Part shown: piece after piece, positions 37,670-49,121 of the stretch | Numbering within the stretch: the first letter of the stretch is position 1 | Layout of the letters: the number at the start of each line of letters is the position of its first letter | Assembly: GCA_963767005.1 (NCBI GenBank) | Contig: CAVYCN010000010.1 | Coordinates: 100,059 to 164,058 of the forward strand | DNA length: 64,000 nucleotides | Reading direction: 5' to 3' | DNA from: an uncultured Actinomycetes bacterium | Lineage (GTDB): Bacteria > Actinomycetota > Thermoleophilia > UBA2241 | Position numbers and translations under genes: made by a program | The notes under the pieces: model-generated | What the model was told of the DNA's origin: nothing | Database searches by the model: none | Seen by the model: the letters and a program-made list of their open reading frames with translations, nothing else

Positions 37670-39070
37670 TCAGGGCAGGGGCGCGCGCTCGTCGTCGAAG
37701 CCGACGCCATGGGCCGACGGGGCGAGGCGCTCAGCCTCTGCGAGGCTGAGCGCCTCGCCCCCGGCCGCGATGCGCTTCCAGGCGCGGCCCAGGACCGGCG
37801 CGGCGCAGGCGAGGCCGCCGAGGGCGAGAAAGCCGCCCACGCCGATCGCGTCGCCGCTGATCCAGGTGAACAGGAGAGGCGCCGTGAGGGTGCCCACCAG
37901 GGCGGCGAGCTGCATCGAGGTCTGCTCCATGCCCTGGATGGTGCCGAGCCAGCGGCGCGGGCTGCACTGCACGAGGAAGGCCTGCTTGGCCGGCATGGAG
38001 ATCGCCACGGCCACGCCCTCGAAGACGTTGAAGAGCAGGAAGACCGTGAGGTTGCGGGTGAAGCCGTAGACGATCCACGAGCACGCCGAGAAGGCGTAGC
38101 CGGCGAACATGAGGCGGAAGCGGTTGCCCTTCTCGGCCAGTATGCCGCCGGCAAACGAGAAGAGCATCGGCACGGAGAAGGCGATCCAGGTGAGGCTCAC
38201 GAAGGCCATCGAAGCGCCCAGGTGGCGCAGCCAGAGGCTCCAGAGAACCTCCCAGCCGCCCATGGCGAAGTGGCTCGTCGCGGCGATGAGCAAGAAGCCG
38301 GCCACGGGCGGTGTGATGAGCGAGAAGTAGCTCAACAAGGTGCCCGTCACCGAGCGCCACAGGTAGCGGCCCAGGGCGACCGGATGAAGCGGCGACGGCG
38401 CGCGTTCGGGGGCGCGGGCGGGCTCGGCGGCGAGTGCGCGGCGGCGCGCGGCCGCCTGGGCGGGCTCTCTGAGCAGGGCCAGGACCAGCACGGCCATGGC
38501 CAGGGTCATGGCGCTGCCCACCAGGAAGATGGTGTAGAAGCCGCGCCGGCCACCGCCGCCCAGGTCGTTCAGCAGGACGGCGAGCGCCGGTCCGATGACG
38601 AGGCCGCCGAACTGGGCGCTCGTCAGCAGGCCGTAGGCGCGGCCGCGCGTGTCGTCGTCGCTGACGTCGGCGATGATGGCGCTGCCGGCGGGGCCGACCG
38701 AGGCGGCGCCGATGCCCTCGCAGAGCCGGAACAGCAGGAACCACCAGGCGTTCACCGTGGTGACGAACAGGAACGTGGCGAGCGCGTAGAGGAACAGACC
38801 GACCACGATGACCGGCTTGCGGCCGACGCGGTCGCTCAGCCGGCCGAGCGGCGACGAGAAGATGAACGTGCCGGCGTAGTACCCGGCCGCGATCACGCCG
38901 ATCATCTGCACCGACGCGTGGGCCTGCTCGTGCAGGAACACGGGCAGGTACGGCAGGATAGCGCCGAAGCCGGACCACACCACGAACGACGCGAAGCAGA
39001 CCAGCGCAAGCTGCGACCAGTCGGTGTCGTGGGACGCCGGCGCCCCGCCGGTGTCGGCTGTCGCGGTCAC
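37670..39070 (-). CDS. MFS transporter (DHA1-like)
   Basis: GRLSDRVGRKP motif A, 12 TM; start GTG 39070 after GGGAAGGA. Confidence 0.9.
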   Translation of the reverse strand: MTATADTGGAPASHDTDWSQLALVCFASFVVWSGFGAILPYLPVFLHEQAHASVQMIGVIAAGYYAGTFIFSSPLGRLSDRVGRKPVIVVGLFLYALATFLFVTTVNAWWFLLFRLCEGIGAASVGPAGSAIIADVSDDDTRGRAYGLLTSAQFGGLVIGPALAVLLNDLGGGGRRGFYTIFLVGSAMTLAMAVLVLALLREPAQAAARRRALAAEPARAPERAPSPLHPVALGRYLWRSVTGTLLSYFSLITPPVAGFLLIAATSHFAMGGWEVLWSLWLRHLGASMAFVSLTWIAFSVPMLFSFAGGILAEKGNRFRLMFAGYAFSACSWIVYGFTRNLTVFLLFNVFEGVAVAISMPAKQAFLVQCSPRRWLGTIQGMEQTSMQLAALVGTLTAPLLFTWISGDAIGVGGFLALGGLACAAPVLGRAWKRIAAGGEALSLAEAERLAPSAHGVGFDDERAPLP

Positions 39071-39176
39071 GATGTCCTTCCCCAAAAAGCCGGCCGGCGA
39101 GCGCCGGCCAGGCTCTGAGCCCCGCGCCTAGGCTACCATGTCGCACGCACGCGGCGGAACGGGCCGCGGCGCCGGC

Positions 39177-40403
39177 TCAGATATCGCGCACCACGGGCAC
39201 GAAGAAGCCGATCAGGGCCGGCACGAAGACGATCGCCCCGCACACGCCGAAGAGCGGCCCGAGGCTGACCACCGCGGCGAGCCCGCCGGCGGCGAGCACG
39301 CCGATCGCGTACACCCCCTGTGTGAGCGTGAATCGGGCGCCCCAGACGCGCCCGCGCAGGTACTCCGGCACGACCGACTGCACGTACGTGTCGATCGAGA
39401 TCAGCATCACTGCGTTGGCCGCTCCTAGCACGACGAAGTCGCCGAGGACGAGCGGGAGGGTGCCGAGCAAAGTAGGCACAGCTGCGCACATCCCCATGAT
39501 CATTAGCCCGACTGTAATCGCGAGACCCTTGCGGATTCGTTTGGCCAACCAAGCTGTGCCGAGCGAGGCAGCCAAGAAGCCCAACGCCAGTCCTGCCTCC
39601 ATGAACCCAAAAGACCGCAGACTGTTGAAGTGCCTCACGGCGAGCAAGAACGAGAGGGGGTAGAAGGCTCCGATGCCGGCCGCGGCAGCCACAGCCATGG
39701 CGGTGTTCGCTCGAAGTCCCCTGTGACGCACCGTATATGCGATACCCTCGCGCGCACTTGCCCACAGCCTTAGGGTGGTCTGGGCATCGCTTCGAGCAGC
39801 GGTCGCAGAGGCGCCGGCCGTTGTCATCGCCAGTAACGTCACGGCTGACACTCCGAAAGTCGCCGCATCTACGGCGAAGGTCGTGTGAAGTGGGAGCCAG
39901 GCGACGACCAAGCCAGCAGCCGCGAATCCAACGACCTCTGTCGATTGCATACTCGCCGAGAGCAGGGAGTTGGCGCGGAGCAGGTCGCGCTCCCGCACGA
40001 TCTCAGGGAGGAACGCCATCAGGCCTGGCTCGAAGAATGCGGTGGCCGTGGCGGTAGCGAAAGCCAACACGAAGAGCCCATCGATGGACCGCTGGGCGAC
40101 ATACGGGACGCTCAACACGAGCCCACCCCGCATGACGTCTGCTGCAATCATCACCGCCCGTTTGTTGAGCCGGTCCAGCAACACACCAGCGGCCGTGCCA
40201 AATGCGACATAGGGCAGCGTAAAGATGGCCAGCATCAAACCGGTCGACATTGCTGAATGGGTACGGTGGTAAACGAGCCAAGGTAGAGCGACCATGGCGA
40301 GACGGTCGCCCATTTGTGAGACGAACTGACCTGCCAGAAGCAGGTCAAAGTTCGCATTCTTGGCCAGTGAGTGGCTTTCTTGTCGCTCCTGGGTGACGGT
40401 CAT
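39177..40403 (-). CDS. MFS transporter (DHA3/EntS/Mef-like), divergent from the small-peptide gene
   Basis: GQFVSQMGDRL..VALPW, GVLLDRLNKRAVMIAADVMR, FFEPG, LLRANSL, VPEYLRGRV. Confidence 0.9.
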   Translation of the reverse strand: MTVTQERQESHSLAKNANFDLLLAGQFVSQMGDRLAMVALPWLVYHRTHSAMSTGLMLAIFTLPYVAFGTAAGVLLDRLNKRAVMIAADVMRGGLVLSVPYVAQRSIDGLFVLAFATATATAFFEPGLMAFLPEIVRERDLLRANSLLSASMQSTEVVGFAAAGLVVAWLPLHTTFAVDAATFGVSAVTLLAMTTAGASATAARSDAQTTLRLWASAREGIAYTVRHRGLRANTAMAVAAAAGIGAFYPLSFLLAVRHFNSLRSFGFMEAGLALGFLAASLGTAWLAKRIRKGLAITVGLMIMGMCAAVPTLLGTLPLVLGDFVVLGAANAVMLISIDTYVQSVVPEYLRGRVWGARFTLTQGVYAIGVLAAGGLAAVVSLGPLFGVCGAIVFVPALIGFFVPVVRDI

Positions 40404-40649
40404 CGCCTAGTCGCGTGCCCAGAAGCCCTTTTCAGCTCCATCAAGCTGCTTGCCCCCGCAATGCCGCATGTCCCGACGGGCGGTCCTGTGAAGTAGGTCT
40501 TGCGCACACGAGACTAAGGTGTATACCATCTTGGCCACAGTCAATCGTCAACCTTCTTTTATCGGCAGGTTGGCGCAGCTACTTTAGGGGGCTCGGTGAC
40601 CCGCAAGCAGCTCAAGATCCACTAGGCGAGTAGCAATTAGAAGGTATCG

Positions 40650-40727
40650 ATGAAGAAGATCGAAAACGCTCTTGCGTCGATAGTCCTTGTGCTGGTCGCG
40701 TCAGGCGGAAGCGGCAAGATCCATTAG
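40650..40727 (+). CDS. Putative 25-aa signalling-peptide precursor MKKIENALASIVLVLVASGGSGKIH
   Basis: ATG 40650 preceded by AGAAGGT; stop TAG 40725-40727; basic N-terminus, hydrophobic core and short polar tail; immediately upstream of the HD-GYP gene; below the ORF-track length cutoff. Confidence 0.65.
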   Translation: MKKIENALASIVLVLVASGGSGKIH

Positions 40728-40805
40728 GAAACCCGCATCGCCCTAAAGCGCAGCCCTCGGCGCGCCGATACATACGTGTTGCACGTGGTGCTGCGCGAGG
40801 TGCGG

Positions 40806-42236
40806 GTGGATCACCGGGAACGCAATTTCAAGGTGCTCGCTGCTACGGCGAGTGCTGTTGCCATTGTCTGCGTAGGCTATGCCGGGCGCATTGCGTCCGG
40901 CGTGGGCGTATCGCATAGCGCTCTGAGCACTGTCATCCTCGCTCTTATCGCCATCATCGCAGAGGAGATGGCGGTGGAGGTGCGGGAGCGCGTCACAATG
41001 ACTGCGGGCAACCTGCCTGTGCTTCTTGCGCTCATGTTCTTGGGCCCCATCCCTGCCATGGCCGTCGCAGCAATCGTAGGCTTGTGGGGTGCTTGGCGGG
41101 AGAACTCCCGGTCCGTAGTCATCTACAACTGCTCTCAGCTCGTCATATCGGCCTTCGTGGCAGGCGGCTTGTTTGCTGTTCTGAGACAAAGGTTCGACAT
41201 CCCCTTGGACAGCGTCACTGTTCCCTTGCTAGCAGCCGGCGCGGTCAGCGGGGTCACCTACGAGGCGGTCAACAATCTCCTGATCAGTCTGGCTGCGCTT
41301 GCTAAGTACGGAACGTCACTCACAGCTTTCTGGCGGGATGACATGCCGTCGCTGTTGCTCCGTTCCCTCGTGTTTGTGGTCGGACTGGGACTGGCCATGG
41401 CTGCGCTCTACGCAACTGCCGGAGTAACCGCTGTGGCGCTGCTTTTCATCCCCGTGTTTGCTAGCCAGTACATGTTCAAACTCTTGGTCAGAGAGAGGGC
41501 TCACGTCGCCAAACAACAGGAGCTCACGGACAAGTATCTGGAGATGAACCTCGGTCTGGCGGTCGCCATGGTCGTCCTCCTCGACAGCAAGGACCAGTAC
41601 ACCGCCGACCACTCCGCCGCCGTCGCAATGTACTGTCGCGACATGGCCCTGGCGGCCGGCATGGGCGAGGCCGAGGCCGAGGAGATCCACCTCGCCGGCC
41701 TCCTCCACGATTTGGGGAAGGTCGGCACGCCCGACGCGATCCTGCGCAAGGATTCGAGTCTGGACGACGACGAGTGGGGCTACATCCAGCAGCATCCCGA
41801 GAAGGGCGCCGAAGTCCTCTCGCATCTGGCCGCCTATCAGAACGTCGCCGACATCGTGCGCTACCACCACGAGCGGCTTGACGGCACCGGCTATCCATTC
41901 GGCCTCACGAGCGAGTCGATCCCTGAAGCCAGCAAGATGCTCGCGGTCGCCGACACGTACCACGCCATGACGTCGGACCGTCCGTACCGCCGGGCGCTGA
42001 GTTCTTTCGAAGCCCTGAAGGAGATACGAGCAATGGCGGGCGTTGCGCTCGATGCGCGCTGGGTCGAGATTCTCGCCGGCATCCTGCGAGACAAGGATCT
42101 CGCCTACCGTGACGGCAGCGCGACCGACTTCATGGACGAGTACGAGCGCGGGCGCCTGAACCTGCGCCTCAGGGGCGAGGCGCTGGCCGATCTGCGCGGG
42201 CTCTCGCGGTCGCGTCAGGACCCAGCGGCAGGCTGA
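40806..42236 (+). CDS. HD-GYP c-di-GMP phosphodiesterase with N-terminal multi-TM sensor domain
   Basis: About 6-7 TM N-terminus; KDQYTADHS, LLHDLGKVG, HPEKG, HHERLDGTGYP, MTSDRPYR; start GTG 40806 after GAGG (the track start is 40776). Confidence 0.9.
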   Translation: MDHRERNFKVLAATASAVAIVCVGYAGRIASGVGVSHSALSTVILALIAIIAEEMAVEVRERVTMTAGNLPVLLALMFLGPIPAMAVAAIVGLWGAWRENSRSVVIYNCSQLVISAFVAGGLFAVLRQRFDIPLDSVTVPLLAAGAVSGVTYEAVNNLLISLAALAKYGTSLTAFWRDDMPSLLLRSLVFVVGLGLAMAALYATAGVTAVALLFIPVFASQYMFKLLVRERAHVAKQQELTDKYLEMNLGLAVAMVVLLDSKDQYTADHSAAVAMYCRDMALAAGMGEAEAEEIHLAGLLHDLGKVGTPDAILRKDSSLDDDEWGYIQQHPEKGAEVLSHLAAYQNVADIVRYHHERLDGTGYPFGLTSESIPEASKMLAVADTYHAMTSDRPYRRALSSFEALKEIRAMAGVALDARWVEILAGILRDKDLAYRDGSATDFMDEYERGRLNLRLRGEALADLRGLSRSRQDPAAG

Positions 42237-42753
42237 CCAGAGCCCTTGCGACAATGGCTGCGGCGACGGCCTTCGCAACGTCGCCCGGCAGGAACTGGAG
42301 GACCCCTCCCCACACGACGACGTGGAAGCTGTTCGTTTGCAGTTGCAGTGCAAGCCAGGTTGCGCCGAGCGCGTAGATCGGCACAAGCCCGGCCAGTGCG
42401 ACGGGGAGCGCGGCCCGGAGGGTGCGCGGCTTGAGCCGATCCGAGAGCCAGCCGACCAGGCCAGCCGCGACCACGAACCCGAACAGATAGCCGCCTGCCG
42501 GGCCGGCCAGAGCACCTGGCCCTGACGCGCCCTGCGCGTACACGGGCGCGACCAGCCCCATCAGGAGATAGACCGTGAGGCTCAGCACGCCCAGCCGAGC
42601 GCCGAGAACGAGGCCGGCGAGCAGGACGAACGCTACCTGCAGGGTGAACGGCACCGGCCCGAAGAACGGCGCCGAAACGAACGCTCCGAGCGACACCAGC
42701 GCCGCGAACAACGCGGCGAGCGCGAGATCACGGGGTGTGAGGCGGGAGAACAA
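42169..42753 (-). CDS. bioY: Biotin transporter BioY
   Basis: GPVPFTLQ, AGLVLGARLG, GPAGGYLFGF, FLPGDVAKA; downstream of birA. Confidence 0.9.
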   Translation of the reverse strand: MFSRLTPRDLALAALFAALVSLGAFVSAPFFGPVPFTLQVAFVLLAGLVLGARLGVLSLTVYLLMGLVAPVYAQGASGPGALAGPAGGYLFGFVVAAGLVGWLSDRLKPRTLRAALPVALAGLVPIYALGATWLALQLQTNSFHVVVWGGVLQFLPGDVAKAVAAAIVARALVSLPLGPDATARARADRPAPRP

Positions 42754-42788
42754 TTGTCAACTCGCAGAGACCACAGCGAGTTGACAAT
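42753..42788. promoter_or_regulatory. BirA-operator-like palindrome abutting the bioY start
   Basis: ATTGTCAACTCGC-N10-GCGAGTTGACAAT (TGTCAAC-N18-GTTGACA core), resembling the BirA box TGTtAAC-N14-16-GTTaACA. Confidence 0.7.
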
Positions 42789-42839
42789 GTAGCGGCTCGG
42801 GCGGCGCCCTGTAAAGGGTGCGGCCCGAGCCCGCTCGCG

Positions 42840-43859
42840 CTACCGGTGCAGCGTCACGTCACCCGAGTGGAACCGCCTGATGTGGCGGTCGGGGAGCTCG
42901 ACCAGTAGCGCCCCGCGGTCGTCGATGCCGGCGGCCTCACCCATGACGAGCCCTTCACGGGTCTGCATGCTCACGCTGCGATGGAGGAGGTAGTCGCGCT
43001 CGCGGAACTCGCGGAGGGTGCGCTCGAAGCCGTTCGCGAGACAGTCGAGGTAGGTCTTCTCGAGCGTGAGCAGGATCCGTGCCAGGAGCACGCTGCGATC
43101 GACCGTCTTGTCGGTCGCCATCTTGAGCGACGTCGCCGTCTTGCGCAGCGCGACGGGCAGCTCGGTGAACTCGACGTTGACGTTGATGCCGATGCCGGCG
43201 ACTACCCAGTCCACCCGGTCCTGCTCGCCGGAGACCTCGAGCAGGATGCCGCCGGCCTTCTTGTTGTCGATGATGATGTCGTTCGGCCACTTCAGGTGCA
43301 CGGGGATCTTCGCCTGCGCCTCGATCGCCTCAGCCACGGCGTCGCCGGTCGTCAGCGTGAGCATGTGAGCGTCGGTCATCGCGAGGCTGGGCCGCAGGAT
43401 GACCGAGAAAAGCAGGCCCTTGCCGGGCGGAGACGTCCAGGTGCGCCCGAGCCTGCCCCTGCCCTTGAGCTGGCTCTCGGCGACGACGACGGTGCCTTCG
43501 GGCGCGCCCTCGGTCGCGAGGCGGCGGCCTTCGGTGTTGGTCGACTCGATCTCGTCGTAGTAGCGAAACGACTTTCCGAGCGCCGACTTCTCGGTGAGCT
43601 TGGCCACAACGGGCATGACCAGACGCCTCGGCTCTTCCTCGAGCCGATAGCCGCGGCGCGAGATGCCGAGGATGCGGAAGCCACGTGCGCGCAGGGAGTT
43701 GACGTGCTTGTGGACCGCGTTGCGCGAGATGCCGAGCGAGTCGCTGATCGCCTGACCGGAGACGAAGCCAGGATTGTCGCGGAGGATCTCGATGACAGTC
43801 TTCTTGCGTGGGCTCATGCGCTGTGACTCAACGAAGACGATGGATGCGGATGATTCCAT
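42840..43859 (-). CDS. birA: Bifunctional biotin-protein ligase / biotin repressor BirA
   Basis: N-terminal HTH (VSGQAISDSLGISRNAVHKHV), STN, QLKGRGRLGRTW, KWPND, KAGGIL, GIGIN; GGAGG RBS. Confidence 0.95.
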   Translation of the reverse strand: MESSASIVFVESQRMSPRKKTVIEILRDNPGFVSGQAISDSLGISRNAVHKHVNSLRARGFRILGISRRGYRLEEEPRRLVMPVVAKLTEKSALGKSFRYYDEIESTNTEGRRLATEGAPEGTVVVAESQLKGRGRLGRTWTSPPGKGLLFSVILRPSLAMTDAHMLTLTTGDAVAEAIEAQAKIPVHLKWPNDIIIDNKKAGGILLEVSGEQDRVDWVVAGIGINVNVEFTELPVALRKTATSLKMATDKTVDRSVLLARILLTLEKTYLDCLANGFERTLREFRERDYLLHRSVSMQTREGLVMGEAAGIDDRGALLVELPDRHIRRFHSGDVTLHR

Positions 43860-43915
43860 GGCCCCCCTCCGGTGTGGTTGTGGGAGGAGGCTAGCGGTCT
43901 GAGCTCAGGGGCGAA

Positions 43916-46777
43916 TCAGTCCCCGGTTGTATCTTGTCCGGTCCGCGGTTCGATGTACGCGCGATAGTACAGCACGGCCTGGACGCGGTCGCTGACGCCG
44001 AGCTTCGTGAAGATGTGGTTGACATGCGTCTTGACGGTCTTCTCGGAAAGGAACAGGCGTCTCGCAATCTCTGGATTCCGATGGCCGGCGGCGATGAGGC
44101 TCAGGACTTGCTCTTCTCGGCCGGTGAGCTCTGAGACTGGGGATGGCCCATCGTGACGCGGGAGGGCTCTGCGGATGGCGCGGAGCTCACGGATCTGACC
44201 GCCCTTCCTAGCCTCGACAAGCAATTGCTGAACTACGGCTTCAGGCGCGTCGTGCGTGCAGATTTCTACCACAAGGGCGCGAAGACTGCGGTCATCTGCC
44301 TGTAGCATCCGCACAAGCAGCGGCACTGACCTCTGGCTGTGTAGGAGCGCTTTGATCAGGGCCGCTCGCCAAGCTTTCAGGTTCTCGTCGTGACCTGCTT
44401 GAAGCCCTAAGTCAGGCCACTGAGCGAACTCTTGGCAGAGGAAGTCGACGTGTCCCAGGCACAGTTGTGCCGGCAGACACCGGCGGAGCGCTTCCATGGC
44501 TGTGTCTGCCTCACCCGCCCGTGAGGCTAGGATGGCGCTGAAGAAGTCGCATTCGTTTGCGATGAAAGCTAGGTCGAGACTTTCGCACCTACGCCGAAGC
44601 TCCCCCAGCCTGTCTAGTCCTCCACCATGGAGTAGGCCGTGGGACAAGTGCAGGCCCGCTTCGGCCGACAGGAGTGGGGAAGGCGCCTGCGTCTTGCGTC
44701 CTGACTCGATCGCGGCCTGGTACAGTTCGAGAGCTTCCTCCACTCGCCCCGCGTGTCTAAGAGCGTCCGCCAGTCCGCAGAGCGTTGTGGGAAGGGACCA
44801 GGTGTCCTGCGCAATTCGGGAAGACTCCGCCAGCCGTTCGAAGATGTCTTTGGCTGCGCCCAAGTCACCGTTCGCTGCCAAGAGACGAGCGAATCCCTCG
44901 TCGAACATGTGCCGCAGGTGGTCCAGACCGAGTCGCTCACACTGATCGATGCAAAGATGGGCTGTCGCAGCCGCCTCGTTGTAGCGCCCCAAGTCACGCA
45001 AGAGATCCGTGAGAACCCCGATGAGGGTGACTTTGAGTTGCCCTGAACCCGAGGTCTCGACGAACGGGAGGACCTGCCTGAGACCTGACTCTGCGTCCAG
45101 GAAGCATCCGCGGAGGTATTTCACATTGGCGCGCAACGCCGCGAGTCGTGCGCTTTCTTGAGGGCACACGGAGTGCATTGACTCGGCCTCGCTCCACAGG
45201 CGCTCGGCTTCTCTCCAGCGGCACACGTAGCTGCGTGCCGAGCCGAGGCTCACGAGCGTGTGCACTCTTTGCTCGGTCGTGGTGGCGGCCTCCAACGCTG
45301 CCTCGCAGTACGTCGCCGCCTGTTCGAAGTCGCCCTTCCAGAACCAGATGGCCTCGATTGCGCTCAGCGCGTGGTACACGCCCCACTGATCGTTGCGGGC
45401 ACGAAGCTGGGCCTCGGCGCGAGTGAGCGCGGCCAGGGCTCGGGTCGAGTCGCCCTCGCGCAACGCGAGCTGACCGGCCAGGAAGAGGACCCACGGGTCG
45501 TCTTCGGACGTGTTCGGCGCGAGGCGCTCGAGCCACGATCGGAGAGCGCCAAAGCGGCAGTTGTCGGTGACGAGCTCGCCGCTCCGCGACACTACTCCGA
45601 GCGCCCGCTCAGGCTCGTTCGCTGCGAAGTAGAGCTCGATCGCCGTTTCGGGGTCGCCGGCGCCCTCGACCGACGCTGCCGTGTGGAGTTGCTGGCTGCG
45701 GAAGGCGTCGGCGCCGTATTCGTTCGCGTACCACTGTTGCAGGTAGTCGCGAAGAAGCTGGTGGTAGCGGTACGTGCCCGTCGCACGGTCGACGAATGTG
45801 AAGACGTTGTGGGCAACAAGGCGCTCCAGCGAACGCCGTGCGTGATCGGACCTGGCGACCGTGTCGGCGAGCTGGATGGTCATGGATTCGAGGCAGCAGG
45901 TAGAAAGCAAGAATGCGACCGTCTCCGCGTCTTCTCGCCTGAACGCCTCTTCGGAGAGATAGGAGAAGACATCGCTTGTGAGCCGGGGGTCGACGAGCGC
46001 GTGCTCGATCGAACCGAGGCTCGTCCAGTCGAGCGCTCGACTGATGAGGACGAGGCTCGCAGGCCAGCCTTCGGTAAGCTCGACCAGGCGGCTTGCCTGG
46101 TCGAGATCGAGTCGCACGCCCGATCGGTGGGCGAAGAGCTCAACGACCTGGGGTGGGTCGAGTCTGAGGTCTTCGAAGGTCACCTCGGCGAGCGCGTCCT
46201 CGAGCTTCAGGCGCGCGGTGGGGACGGCGGGCTGAAACCGAGTGATCAAGACGAGATGAATGAGCGACGGCAAGTTCGCGAGCACGTAGTCGAGCGCGCG
46301 ATTGAGCTCGGCCGACGCGATGGCTTGCTGGTAGTCGTCGACGACGATGTGCAGCTCGTCGGCGACCTCGTCGCGCAGCTCGGAGACCAGTAGGGCGGTC
46401 ATCTCGGACGGCGACATGGGCGTCTCATGTGCCTCGGCGAAGCGTTCCATGAGGATGTCCCCGAACGTGGGGACGCACTCGCGGATCGCCTGTACGAGCG
46501 ACGCGACGAACACGGCCGGGTCGTGGTCGAGGACGTCGACGCGGTACCAGGCCGCTCGCCACCCCAGCCGCCGAGCGGCTTCGGCGATGACGACTGTCTT
46601 TCCGTAGCCGGCCGGTGCGCGCACCGTGAGAAGGCGCTTGCGTGCCCCAGCGGCGATCTTGCCGAGGACGTCGTCTCGGATGAGTGCCTGCCCGACGCTC
46701 GGTGTTGCGATCTTGGCGGCGACGAACGCCGGTGCCCCTGCCGGCACGCGGCGCGCCGAGCTTTGGTGGTCCCCCAC
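43916..46777 (-). CDS. MalT-type (STAND ATPase-TPR-LuxR HTH) transcriptional regulator
   Basis: RAPAGYGKT, VVDDYQ, TEGWPA, YRYHQLLRDYL, TPR-like helical repeats, ELTGREEQVL..IAAGHRNPEIARRLFLSEKTVKTHVNHIFTKL; start GTG 46777. Confidence 0.9.
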   Translation of the reverse strand: MGDHQSSARRVPAGAPAFVAAKIATPSVGQALIRDDVLGKIAAGARKRLLTVRAPAGYGKTVVIAEAARRLGWRAAWYRVDVLDHDPAVFVASLVQAIRECVPTFGDILMERFAEAHETPMSPSEMTALLVSELRDEVADELHIVVDDYQQAIASAELNRALDYVLANLPSLIHLVLITRFQPAVPTARLKLEDALAEVTFEDLRLDPPQVVELFAHRSGVRLDLDQASRLVELTEGWPASLVLISRALDWTSLGSIEHALVDPRLTSDVFSYLSEEAFRREDAETVAFLLSTCCLESMTIQLADTVARSDHARRSLERLVAHNVFTFVDRATGTYRYHQLLRDYLQQWYANEYGADAFRSQQLHTAASVEGAGDPETAIELYFAANEPERALGVVSRSGELVTDNCRFGALRSWLERLAPNTSEDDPWVLFLAGQLALREGDSTRALAALTRAEAQLRARNDQWGVYHALSAIEAIWFWKGDFEQAATYCEAALEAATTTEQRVHTLVSLGSARSYVCRWREAERLWSEAESMHSVCPQESARLAALRANVKYLRGCFLDAESGLRQVLPFVETSGSGQLKVTLIGVLTDLLRDLGRYNEAAATAHLCIDQCERLGLDHLRHMFDEGFARLLAANGDLGAAKDIFERLAESSRIAQDTWSLPTTLCGLADALRHAGRVEEALELYQAAIESGRKTQAPSPLLSAEAGLHLSHGLLHGGGLDRLGELRRRCESLDLAFIANECDFFSAILASRAGEADTAMEALRRCLPAQLCLGHVDFLCQEFAQWPDLGLQAGHDENLKAWRAALIKALLHSQRSVPLLVRMLQADDRSLRALVVEICTHDAPEAVVQQLLVEARKGGQIRELRAIRRALPRHDGPSPVSELTGREEQVLSLIAAGHRNPEIARRLFLSEKTVKTHVNHIFTKLGVSDRVQAVLYYRAYIEPRTGQDTTGD

Positions 46778-46964
46778 TGATCGGCCCCCGTTTGGAGCGT
46801 GCGCTCCTGCCCCAGTGCGCTTACTATAGCAGTCGCACGAGTGTCGGTACCTGGGACTGCCGCGGTGAAGGTTGACATAGCGATGATGGCGGACGTGACG
46901 ATGGCCGGGCGGCTGCCGGTGCTGCGTACCCACGCGCTCGGCGGCGCGTTGTCCGTCCGTTAAT

Positions 46965-49121
46965 ATGACCGTGATGAGTCAAACCCCCCAGAGACCTCCG
47001 CGGCGACGCAAGAAGAAGGAGCCGTTCGCCGTCGTCATCCTTGCGCTTGTGGTCGCGCTCGTGGCGTGGCCGTTCGAGCGGCTGGCCGGGCGCGGGCGCG
47101 AGCCGCAGGGTCGCGGCGGCGCCCGGCGGCGCCGGCCTGCCCGGCCGGCGACCGGGAGCCGGCGAGAGGCGGTCGCGAGGCCGGCCGGCGACGCCTGGGA
47201 GCCGGCGCCCGAGTTCGGCGAAGGCTGGGTGCGCGTCGGCGAGCGCGAACCGCGCGCCGCGGGCGCCGCTGAGCCGTCCGCGCGCGGCTCACGGCAGCGC
47301 GCGGGCGGTCGCGGCGGCCCCTCGCAGCGCCGCCTGGCGATCCTGCTGGTCGTGGGCGTCGTCGTGGCGCTGCTCGTCGCGGCGGTGGCCTTCGCCGAGG
47401 CGACCCAGGGCTCGGCGATCGGTCGCCACGTGAGCGTGAACGGTGTTGCGCTCGGCGGCCTCACCGTGGACCAGGCGGCGCGCAAGCTCGACAGCGTCGA
47501 GCTGACCGCCGGCGGCCTGCGGCTGACCTGGCGGGGCCACGACTGGACCCTGACCGGTCGCGCCCTGCACGCCCGCATCGAGGCGCGCCAGACGGCGCAG
47601 CTCGCCTACGCCTACACGCGCTCGGGCAACGTCGTGGCGCGCCTGTGGGACCGCTTTGCGCTGCTCTTCTCGGGCCACACGGTCGAGCCGACCGTCACCT
47701 ACGGTGAACCGGTCACGCGCGAGCGCCTCGACGCCATCACTCGCGCCGTCGACGTGAAGCCCGTCGAGGGCGCCGTCACGCTCCGCGGGGTCGATCCGGT
47801 CGCGCATGCGGCCAAGGACGGCCGCGCGGTCGACCGCGCGGCCGTCCTTGGCCTGCTGGATGCCGCGCTGCTTGCGCAGACTCACGCGAGCGTCGCTCTG
47901 CCGGTGACCACGATCAGCCCGTCGGTGTCGACGTCCGACGCCAAGGCGGCGGCCGCCACCGCGCGCGACTGGCTGTCGGGTCCGCTCTCGCTCACGCACG
48001 CCGGCCACACCTGGACGATCTCACGCCAGGACCTGGGCCAGTACCTCGCCTTCGTGCGCCAGCAGGGTTCGCCGCACCTGCGCGTGACCTTCGATTCGCC
48101 CGTCACGCGCGGCTACTTCTCGTACATCACCGCGCAGGTCGGGCAGCCCGGCAGGAACGCCACCTTCACCCTGAGCAGCGGCGGCAAGCGCGTGTGGGTC
48201 AAGCCCGGCACCACGGGCTACGGCGTCGTGCCGGGGCCGACCATCGCCAACATGGACGCGGCCGCCGCGGGCGGCGGCAGCCGCGTCGCGGCCGCGGTCT
48301 TCGGCAAGGCGCCGCCGGCCCTGAGCTACGCCGACGCCAAGGCGCTGCGCATCACGACGCGCATCGGCACTTACACCACGGGCGTGGCCGGCACCACCAA
48401 CCGCCTCGACAACGTCGCGCTCGGCTCGTCGCTGCTCAACAACACGCTGATCGCGCCGGGCAAGATCTTCTCGGTCAACGCCACGACCGGCGAGCGCACC
48501 GCGGCCAAGGGCTTCAAGATGGCGCCGACCATCATCAACGGCAAGCTCGAGGACTCGGTCGGCGGCGGCATGTGCCAGGTCTCGACGACGGTCTTCAACG
48601 CCGCCTTCGAGGCCGGCCTGCAGATCGTCGAGCGCCACAACCACGAGCTCTACATCTCGCACTACCCGCTGGGCCGCGACGCGACGGTGAGCTACGGCTC
48701 CTACGACCTCAAGTTCCGCAACGACACGCCCAACTGGATCCTGCTCAAGACCGACTTCACGGGCTGGGCGCTCACCGTGTCGCTCTACAGCGCGCCGCTG
48801 CACCGCCGGGTCGTGGCCTGGACCAACAGCTGGTACGACATCGTGCCCTTCACCGTGCACAAGTCGCGCGACCCAGCGCTGCCGAAGGGGCAGACCACGG
48901 TGCAGACGCCGGGCGTCGACGGCATGAGCCTCGACTGCTTCCGCAAGGTGTACGACGCAAGCGGCAAGCTCCTCTGGAACGACGACTTCAAGAGCGTCTA
49001 CTCGATGGTCCGCGAGATCCTTCTGGTCGGCACCAAGCAGCCGACCCCGAGCCCCAGCGGGTCGGCCACGGCGACGAGCTCGCCAAAACCCAAGCCGAGC
49101 ACGTCGTCGAGCCCGCACTGA
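46965..49121 (+). CDS. VanW-family protein with PG-binding-4 domains and a G5-like C-terminus
   Basis: NRLDNV, IAPGKIFSVN..TGERT, GGGMCQVSTTVFNAA, ERHNH, YPLGRDATV, DLKFRNDT. Confidence 0.9.
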   Translation: MTVMSQTPQRPPRRRKKKEPFAVVILALVVALVAWPFERLAGRGREPQGRGGARRRRPARPATGSRREAVARPAGDAWEPAPEFGEGWVRVGEREPRAAGAAEPSARGSRQRAGGRGGPSQRRLAILLVVGVVVALLVAAVAFAEATQGSAIGRHVSVNGVALGGLTVDQAARKLDSVELTAGGLRLTWRGHDWTLTGRALHARIEARQTAQLAYAYTRSGNVVARLWDRFALLFSGHTVEPTVTYGEPVTRERLDAITRAVDVKPVEGAVTLRGVDPVAHAAKDGRAVDRAAVLGLLDAALLAQTHASVALPVTTISPSVSTSDAKAAAATARDWLSGPLSLTHAGHTWTISRQDLGQYLAFVRQQGSPHLRVTFDSPVTRGYFSYITAQVGQPGRNATFTLSSGGKRVWVKPGTTGYGVVPGPTIANMDAAAAGGGSRVAAAVFGKAPPALSYADAKALRITTRIGTYTTGVAGTTNRLDNVALGSSLLNNTLIAPGKIFSVNATTGERTAAKGFKMAPTIINGKLEDSVGGGMCQVSTTVFNAAFEAGLQIVERHNHELYISHYPLGRDATVSYGSYDLKFRNDTPNWILLKTDFTGWALTVSLYSAPLHRRVVAWTNSWYDIVPFTVHKSRDPALPKGQTTVQTPGVDGMSLDCFRKVYDASGKLLWNDDFKSVYSMVREILLVGTKQPTPSPSGSATATSSPKPKPSTSSSPH

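Follow-up and report, generated by a model that had tools for sequence, protein, structure and literature searches.

A conserved small peptide gene and its leaderless twin beside a MASE9-HD-GYP gene in Thermoleophilia: a possible peptide input to c-di-GMP turnover

The locus and its two peptide genes

The DNA analysed (the window, 64,000 nucleotides) comes from an uncultured member of the Thermoleophilia. Two short open reading frames, designated A and B, lie in it between a divergent transporter gene and the gene for a predicted membrane phosphodiesterase. The features of the region are as follows.

39177..40403, minus strand: divergent MFS transporter (MFS_1/MFS_3 match, TIGR00900-like but below cut-off); candidate exporter of the leaderless peptide
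40500..40529, plus strand: predicted sigma70-type promoter of the A+B transcript; -10 TAnnnT conserved, -35 in some genera only
40547..40553, no strand assigned: 7-base box in the peptide leader; invariant, present at other intergenic sites too
40560..40586, minus strand: predicted sigma28/WhiG-type promoter toward the MFS gene; similar site at 44/61 loci
40584..40591, plus strand: Shine-Dalgarno-like run of ORF A; shares bases with the -35 of the sigma28-like promoter that points left
40596..40625, plus strand: ORF A; GTG start, 9 aa (MTRKQLKIH), no leader, K-I-H end; one to four tail units in relatives
40639..40645, plus strand: weak Shine-Dalgarno-like site of ORF B, AGAAGGT
40650..40727, plus strand: ORF B; 25 aa with a basic/amphipathic N-part, a short hydrophobic core, Gly-Gly and a 5-residue tail ending K-I-H
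40744..40770, plus strand: predicted sigma28/WhiG-type promoter after ORF B and before the HD-GYP gene; similar site at 45/63 loci
40806..42236, plus strand: predicted membrane phosphodiesterase with MASE9 and HD-GYP domains and intact HD and GYP motifs; start probably at 40806, in a frame open from 40776
42169..43859, minus strand: bioY and birA; between the HD-GYP and MalT-like genes in the window's own family only
43916..46777, minus strand: MalT-like ATPase-TPR-LuxR regulator, in a frame that stays open to 46933; linked partner and a candidate for activator or alternative receptor

Gene neighbourhoods were counted at 64 distinct loci from the Thermoleophilia family to which the window's genome belongs (here the own family), the denominators being the loci with enough DNA. 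The divergent MFS gene was present at 61/61 loci with enough upstream DNA, and the HD-GYP gene followed ORF B at 61/61 loci, including those retrieved by the peptide alone, which bears out an initial annotation that had tied ORF B to the adjacent membrane HD-GYP sensor. At loci long enough to show it, the MalT-like gene was linked in 38/39 cases; the exception, L152, keeps both A and B with no MalT-like regulator nearby. The birA gene was found at 38 loci and bioY at 36, and a second MFS gene is likewise kept. Because these three genes are also retained, synteny inside one family is weak evidence. The bioY and birA genes are probably passengers. The G+C content is 0.56-0.68 in the MFS-to-HD-GYP stretch and in the MalT-like gene, against 0.66-0.79 in the flanks.

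Orthologous loci were also found in another family of the same class (family f6). There a peptide of 25-28 aa with a Trp-type tail comes before the HD-GYP gene, and MalT-like genes directly adjoin that gene. A, bioY-birA and an upstream MFS match were all lacking at the orthologues examined, and 3/4 long family-f6 loci examined have an oligopeptide ABC transporter close by. Four family-f6 loci (L078, L084-L086) are flanked by a V4R-GGDEF-REC-LuxR hybrid gene plus one or two MalT-like genes. No Rfam family was matched within 39000-47500 besides one chance microRNA match. A modified-peptide (RiPP) reading was dropped, as no modifying enzyme was present among the scanned neighbours.

The 25-residue ORF B was found as first annotated, with its ATG at 40650, a TAG ending at 40727 and AGAAGGT at 40639-40645. 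Its conservation was determined over one orthologous HD-GYP locus per own-family genome; one locus lacking upstream DNA (L027) and one genome's second copy were excluded, leaving 28 loci. B was present at 26 of these and is under purifying selection, ie it is a real conserved small gene, as had been proposed. Nine same-genus copies gave pS 0.54 and pN 0.068; across 25 copies, one with a codon deletion being excluded, the values were 0.63 and 0.24, and neither the shifted frames nor the reverse strand of B displayed a comparable excess of pS over pN. Conservation spans the whole length: G20 and H25 are invariant in 22 aligned sequences, and Glu5 and Ser10 are among the conserved residues. In 62 B peptides G was observed at -7 in 60/62 and at -6 in 62/62 (Gly-Gly or Gly-Ala before the putative mature part).

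A profile of 22 B copies gave matches in 68/89 own-family genomes, nearly always once per genome. Among ten own-family genomes with no match, eight had no orthologous sensor by this query, one was cut at a contig end and one carried a cassette with indels. Of 164 genomes from other families the same profile matched four, weakly (E about 0.005) and within long frames. A search of representative proteins gave 20 matches, all of two peptide types, and is too insensitive for short proteins to size the family. No Pfam family was matched by B. The Shine-Dalgarno site of B is variable among relatives, and that of A is stronger.

The N-terminal part of B has a basic n-region and a short h-region, two of the elements looked for in a Sec signal peptide. 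Residues 2-12 are amphipathic (moment 1.93), and the best 11-residue hydropathy window reaches 3.0. The initial annotation had regarded B as essentially a signal peptide with almost no cargo. Only part of that description holds: B does have a cargo, since its tail is also encoded alone and in tandem by ORF A.

ORF A, which was overlooked in the initial annotation, sits 24 nt upstream of B and ends in the same K-[ILVM]-H tail; nothing but the tail is common to both. In the window's own genome (6.87 million strand-bases), A and B are the only Shine-Dalgarno-led ORFs of 26 aa or fewer that end [KR][ILVM]H-stop. A was present at 26/28 orthologous loci, 22 of them called by script and four more recognised in its further output, and both A and B were present at 24/28. 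For a wider test the 64 distinct loci were anchored on a conserved leader motif, which was found in 51, and the first Shine-Dalgarno-led start was taken. A clean ORF ending in the tail, 5 to 33 aa in length, was observed at 42/51 anchored loci. Seven of the other nine have single-base frameshifts, which are probably assembly errors, and two have starts outside the search rule. Among the 42 clean loci the tail unit occurs once in 21, twice in 8, three times in 12 and four times in 1 (example MRFGGKMHIKFGGKMHIRFGGKMH), and the change between single and multiple units maps to 5 events on the sensor tree.

Upstream of the tail A is barely constrained (pS 0.49, pN 0.43, n=11), its conservation being confined to the last three codons. 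At L069 a 5-codon A is retained and B has decayed; at L074 there are two A-type leaderless ORFs ending K-L-R and no B. The tails of A and B are identical at 9/21 loci. Co-variation between them gave a raw permutation P of 0.011, which does not survive a tree-based test (2/2 independent pairs for Met, p=0.5), and was dropped.

The sensor, its promoters and its relatives

The MASE9 domain of the downstream gene product scored 28.4 bits against a Pfam cut-off of 24.3, and HD_5 was also matched. The HD, HHE-GYP and downstream motifs are intact, the HD motif being identical in 56/57 aligned orthologues, and the protein is a predicted c-di-GMP phosphodiesterase. A structure model of the window's MASE9 domain had a pLDDT of 92. 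When it was compared with known structures the top 14 rows were all ECF S-components, the first 13 with Z of 12.6-15.5 and rmsd of 2.9-4.0, against 9.0 or less for non-ECF rows; the top match had Z 15.5 and rmsd 3.3 with 190 aligned. Foldseek placed the same ECF families first, at weak E-values. The MASE9 sensor domain is accordingly predicted, on the model, to have the ECF S-component fold, a six-helix core with a beta-hairpin loop. ECF S-components bind one small ligand tightly in an outward pocket, and such a pocket would suit a peptide of about five residues. A complex prediction for a relative's MASE9 domain and its B peptide, run without controls, scored 0.00 and was weighed neither for nor against binding. 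In the own family bioY, itself an S-component gene, adjoins the gene for the S-component-fold MASE9 protein, which is probably coincidence. Biotin was considered as the MASE9 ligand on account of the adjoining bioY-birA and dropped, the pair being absent from the family-f6 orthologues.

At two membrane positions, sensors with Trp-type tails have Phe (12/13 and 9/13), as against Asn (34/38) and Glu (36/38) in the own family. The family-f6 sensors have the same Asn and Glu yet Trp-type tails, so the Asn/Glu difference may reflect ancestry. The MASE9 region is more conserved than the TPR region of the MalT-like regulator in 15/16 relatives.

The two peptide genes have their own sigma70-like promoter and the HD-GYP gene another promoter-like site, downstream of B, so that co-transcription of the sensor with the peptides is not required. 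The own genome (G000) encodes a FliA/WhiG protein over cut-off, type IV pilus genes and an ORF with a single RsiG-like motif (contig C2, minus strand, and C2:446028-446705). Strict matches to the sigma28/WhiG consensus numbered 7 in the own genome, compared with 0-2 in five shuffles, and 3/7 lie at peptide-MASE9 loci; the consensus was taken from PMC8325347, and all promoters given here are predictions. That paper also reports that the RsiG of Thermoleophilia has a single motif and that in Rubrobacter the genes of c-di-GMP enzymes follow WhiG-type promoters.

The inverted pair TATCGGC/GCCGATA was considered as an RNA pairing or recombination site and rejected, because its fixed spacing and free middle better fit two sigma28-type promoters. 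The 7-base box of the peptide leader recurs at about 46870-46876, about 45 nt before the extended -10 of the MalT-like gene. The box or its reverse is found within 300 nt of that gene at 21/40 loci (background 9%), and 17/114 genome matches are at other intergenic sites; for that reason a shared operator is not claimed. In most relatives, including L151, L153, L154, L089 and L203, conserved TGTTGTCCA-type repeats occur about 60-100 nt upstream of the peptide promoter; they are degenerate in the window and are candidate activator sites.

Peptide genes are also found upstream of other MASE9 genes. At 17/29 of the best-scoring MASE9 loci across the phylum there is a Shine-Dalgarno-led hydrophobic ORF of 18-42 aa upstream, compared with 49/1243 other long genes in a control confined to the own genome. 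A Natranaerobius plasmid record likewise has a peptide ORF upstream of MASE9. The MASE9-SpoIIE loci have no such peptide upstream. The own genome carries a second MASE9-HD-GYP gene at L001 (G000:C2 about 227000-229500, minus strand), with two tandem 30-31-aa peptides bearing Trp-type tails, a sigma28-like site and DUF5317. This two-peptide layout recurs in six relatives' loci (L038-L041, L096, L106). The own genome's single DUF5317 copy is the one at L001; DUF5317 is not adjacent to the A/B cassette, and it occurs in 22/89 own-family genomes and in 17/68 of those bearing B. An orphan 31-aa peptide of the wider family at G000:C2:654566-654661 (plus strand) has no MASE9 gene directly downstream, which suggests action in trans.

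Two further arrangements were observed. At L113, L115 and L122, which belong to another family of the phylum, MASE9-HD-GYP is preceded by a tandem array of two or three identical genes for a 23-aa peptide, a gene-level amplification parallel to the unit repeats of A. In the own genome L003 (G000:C2 about 589700-593100) contains a MASE9-SpoIIE-like fusion after a gene ending in many RYSWS-type repeats, and that layout recurs in relatives.

Proposed mechanism and alternatives

That the tail is the active species is the simplest account of its being encoded behind a leader in one gene and by itself, in differing numbers of copies, in the other. MASE9 is the most constant partner, has a predicted ligand-binding fold with no known ligand, and is for these reasons read as the receptor. 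We propose that the cassette provides a peptide input to the predicted c-di-GMP phosphodiesterase through MASE9, with the MFS protein exporting the leaderless form and WhiG closing a loop, and give this reading a probability of roughly one in two. B would carry the tail to the membrane on its 20-residue leader, and present or release it after the Gly-Gly. A would make the tail without a leader, in one to four units, and its product may be exported by the divergent MFS transporter. The tail could bind the outward-facing pocket of the S-component-like MASE9 domain and so control the phosphodiesterase, in either direction; A and B might act alike or as agonist and antagonist. The transporter and phosphodiesterase genes both lie behind predicted WhiG-type promoters, and WhiG and an RsiG-like protein are encoded in the genome, so that a fall in c-di-GMP would release WhiG and increase both products, ie a feedback loop.

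Counted in favour of this reading are the purifying selection on B together with the HD-GYP gene after it at 61/61 loci, the absence of the orthologous sensor from 8/10 genomes that have no B match, the tail at the end of A at 42/51 loci with five changes of unit number on the tree, and the persistence of A where B has decayed (L069) or is absent (L074). The predicted S-component fold of MASE9, the Phe versus Asn/Glu positions and the greater conservation of MASE9 over the TPR region were also counted, as were the phylum-wide association (17/29 loci against 49/1243 genes) and the joint occurrence of A and the divergent MFS gene in the own family, with neither at the family-f6 orthologues examined. 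Counted against it are the lack of a C39 peptidase match in the own genome, the presence of DUF5317 in just 17/68 peptide-bearing genomes, the unconstrained pre-tail part of A, the identity of the A and B tails at only 9/21 loci with no significant co-change, and the internal units of A, which have no free C-terminus unless cut. The sensor's own promoter and the MASE9-SpoIIE proteins with no upstream peptide were placed on the same side.

The receptor could instead be the cytoplasmic MalT-like regulator, acting in an RRNPP-like manner: its TPR region would bind the tail (from A directly; from B after export and re-import) and switch transcription of the cassette, the HD-GYP gene being an output gene. 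No export of A is then needed. The linkage at 38/39 loci, the abutment of the regulator and HD-GYP genes in family f6 and the oligopeptide ABC transporter at 3/4 long loci there are consistent with this. The TPR region is predicted to form a generic TPR superhelix, with some invariant charged residues in the first TPRs, and among other TPRs its model resembles Rap-peptide complexes (4gyo, TM 0.59/0.70). However, the match is a generic one, eukaryotic TPRs ranking above Rap and MalT domain III, and sequence divergence is faster in the TPR region than in MASE9, with a tail that does not change. The peptide also travels with MASE9 across the phylum (the MalT-like gene was checked within the class only), and L152 keeps A and B with no regulator nearby. 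We regard the MalT-like receptor as unlikely.

A second alternative, which the initial annotation had raised beside its pheromone reading, is that B is an uncleaved membrane micro-protein. B would pack against MASE9 and insert its tail, and A would be a soluble mimic, competing with B from one side of the membrane; there would be no cell-to-cell signal. The conservation of B over its whole length, including Glu5 and Ser10, is beyond the needs of a disposable leader, no dedicated peptidase was found in the own genome, and binding of a MASE9 ligand within the membrane is proposed in the main text of 10.1101/2021.11.05.467447. Against this, the hydropathy of B over 19 residues, at most 1.46, falls short of that of a typical membrane span, A survives without B in two genomes, the orphan peptide of the own genome lies away from any MASE9 gene, and the linked MFS gene is left unexplained. 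A tail encoded alone and in tandem favours a pheromone-like product over a purely uncleaved membrane modulator, and the latter is considered rather improbable.

It is more doubtful still that A is a translational control element, ie a site of ribosome stalling or of His/Lys sensing at the tail codons, for B or the downstream gene, with only B functional. A is first in the transcript, has the stronger Shine-Dalgarno run and is conserved at the last three codons only, and its repeats would multiply the sensed codons. But B, which has no need of the tail under such a reading, ends in the same one. Between A and B the gap ranges from 5 to 76 nt and holds no conserved sequence, the HD-GYP gene has a separate promoter-like site downstream of B, and there are genomes with A but no B or with two separate copies of A. 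It is very improbable that A is an accidental ORF around a repeated DNA or RNA motif. The terminal triplets are alike at the DNA level (CAC 34/37 and AAG 27/37, in a set that includes six mis-sorted B ORFs), but five codons serve in the Lys/Arg exchange and eight, all for Ile, Leu, Val or Met, at the middle position, and the tail is preceded by a Shine-Dalgarno run and in-frame start at lengths of 5 to 33 aa.

Returning to the tail as a MASE9 ligand, MASE9 is widespread with no known ligand, and the locus offers a candidate that is cheap to synthesise, a 5-9-residue peptide ending K-[ILVM]-H. If the proposal is true, the leaderless twin would be a natural experiment from which the ligand of MASE9 emerges as a free peptide of 5-8 residues from the C-terminus, and genes of 5-9 codons such as A in the window would be among the shortest conserved bacterial genes. 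There would then be a direct route from a peptide to c-di-GMP and a new role for the S-component fold. We suggest, tentatively and at somewhat less than even odds, that the cassette represents an undescribed class of peptide signalling, in which MASE9, with its vitamin-transporter fold, would be a peptide receptor wired directly to c-di-GMP turnover. Its ligand would, in the own family, be encoded twice, once in a leader-borne precursor and once in a leaderless gene 5-33 codons long that holds up to four copies in tandem and whose product the MFS protein would export, all inside a WhiG loop.

Comparison with known systems

The Phr and SHP pheromones of RRNPP systems have a short precursor with a basic N-end, a hydrophobic core and a C-terminal active part of about 5 residues, encoded beside the target gene. 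B is alike in its short precursor, basic N-end, hydrophobic core and short C-terminal part, and in having its gene beside the presumed target. The initial annotation had likened B to precursors of the SHP/Phr type, and with the tail encoded separately a pheromone-like reading holds, but membership of those families does not: B scored 14.1 bits against a cut-off of 25 with the Phr N-terminal model TIGR04429 (NCBIfam), and no Rap, Rgg, NprR, PlcR or PrgX gene was found among the scanned neighbours (MFS, HD-GYP, BioY, BirA and the MalT-like STAND regulator). The neighbour of Phr and SHP genes is Rap or Rgg, whereas in the window it is a membrane phosphodiesterase. We know of no leaderless twin gene with tandem tail units in the Phr/SHP families.

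The double-glycine leader pheromones (ComC type) and the Agr peptides act on a membrane receptor. With the ComC type B shares the Gly-Gly before the tail and, as proposed here, a membrane receptor. No C39 peptidase was matched in the own genome in a search in which 7/14 controls were positive. Output in the ComC and Agr systems is through a histidine kinase and in the window would be through c-di-GMP, and the window peptides have no conserved ring-forming Cys/Ser motif. By analogy, the cassette appears to work like Gram-positive peptide signalling yet fails the tested membership features of the Phr, SHP and double-glycine families.

The MASE9-HD-GYP proteins TM1467 (Thermotoga maritima) and HdgA (Streptomyces venezuelae) have the same domain pair as the window's gene product. 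The main text of bioRxiv 10.1101/2021.11.05.467447 does not settle the ligand of MASE9, suggests that it is bound inside the membrane and contains no mention of an S-component or ECF. In the main text of PMC6205966 HdgA, the studied MASE9 member, had no phenotype, and its activating signals were perhaps missing under the test conditions. Neither main text mentions peptides, and the parts consulted describe no small genes upstream of MASE9-HD-GYP. The WhiG-RsiG-c-di-GMP switch is alike in having WhiG-type promoters before c-di-GMP turnover genes, and the parts consulted of PMC8325347 and PMC12871210 mention neither a peptide input nor a MASE9 protein. The literature searched, which did not extend to subscription journals or bioRxiv supplements, held no description of a peptide-MASE9 system in either its general or its leaderless-twin form.

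At the L001 and Natranaerobius loci, too, a homologous hydrophobic peptide is encoded upstream of MASE9, with a small-small residue pair ahead of its short tail. Compared with the L001-type loci and their aromatic-ended tails, the window has a K-x-H tail, no adjacent DUF5317, and in addition a leaderless ORF, an MFS gene and a MalT-like gene. With the leaderless twin, tail and hydrophobic leader come apart in the window, a separation that the other peptide-MASE9 loci do not offer.
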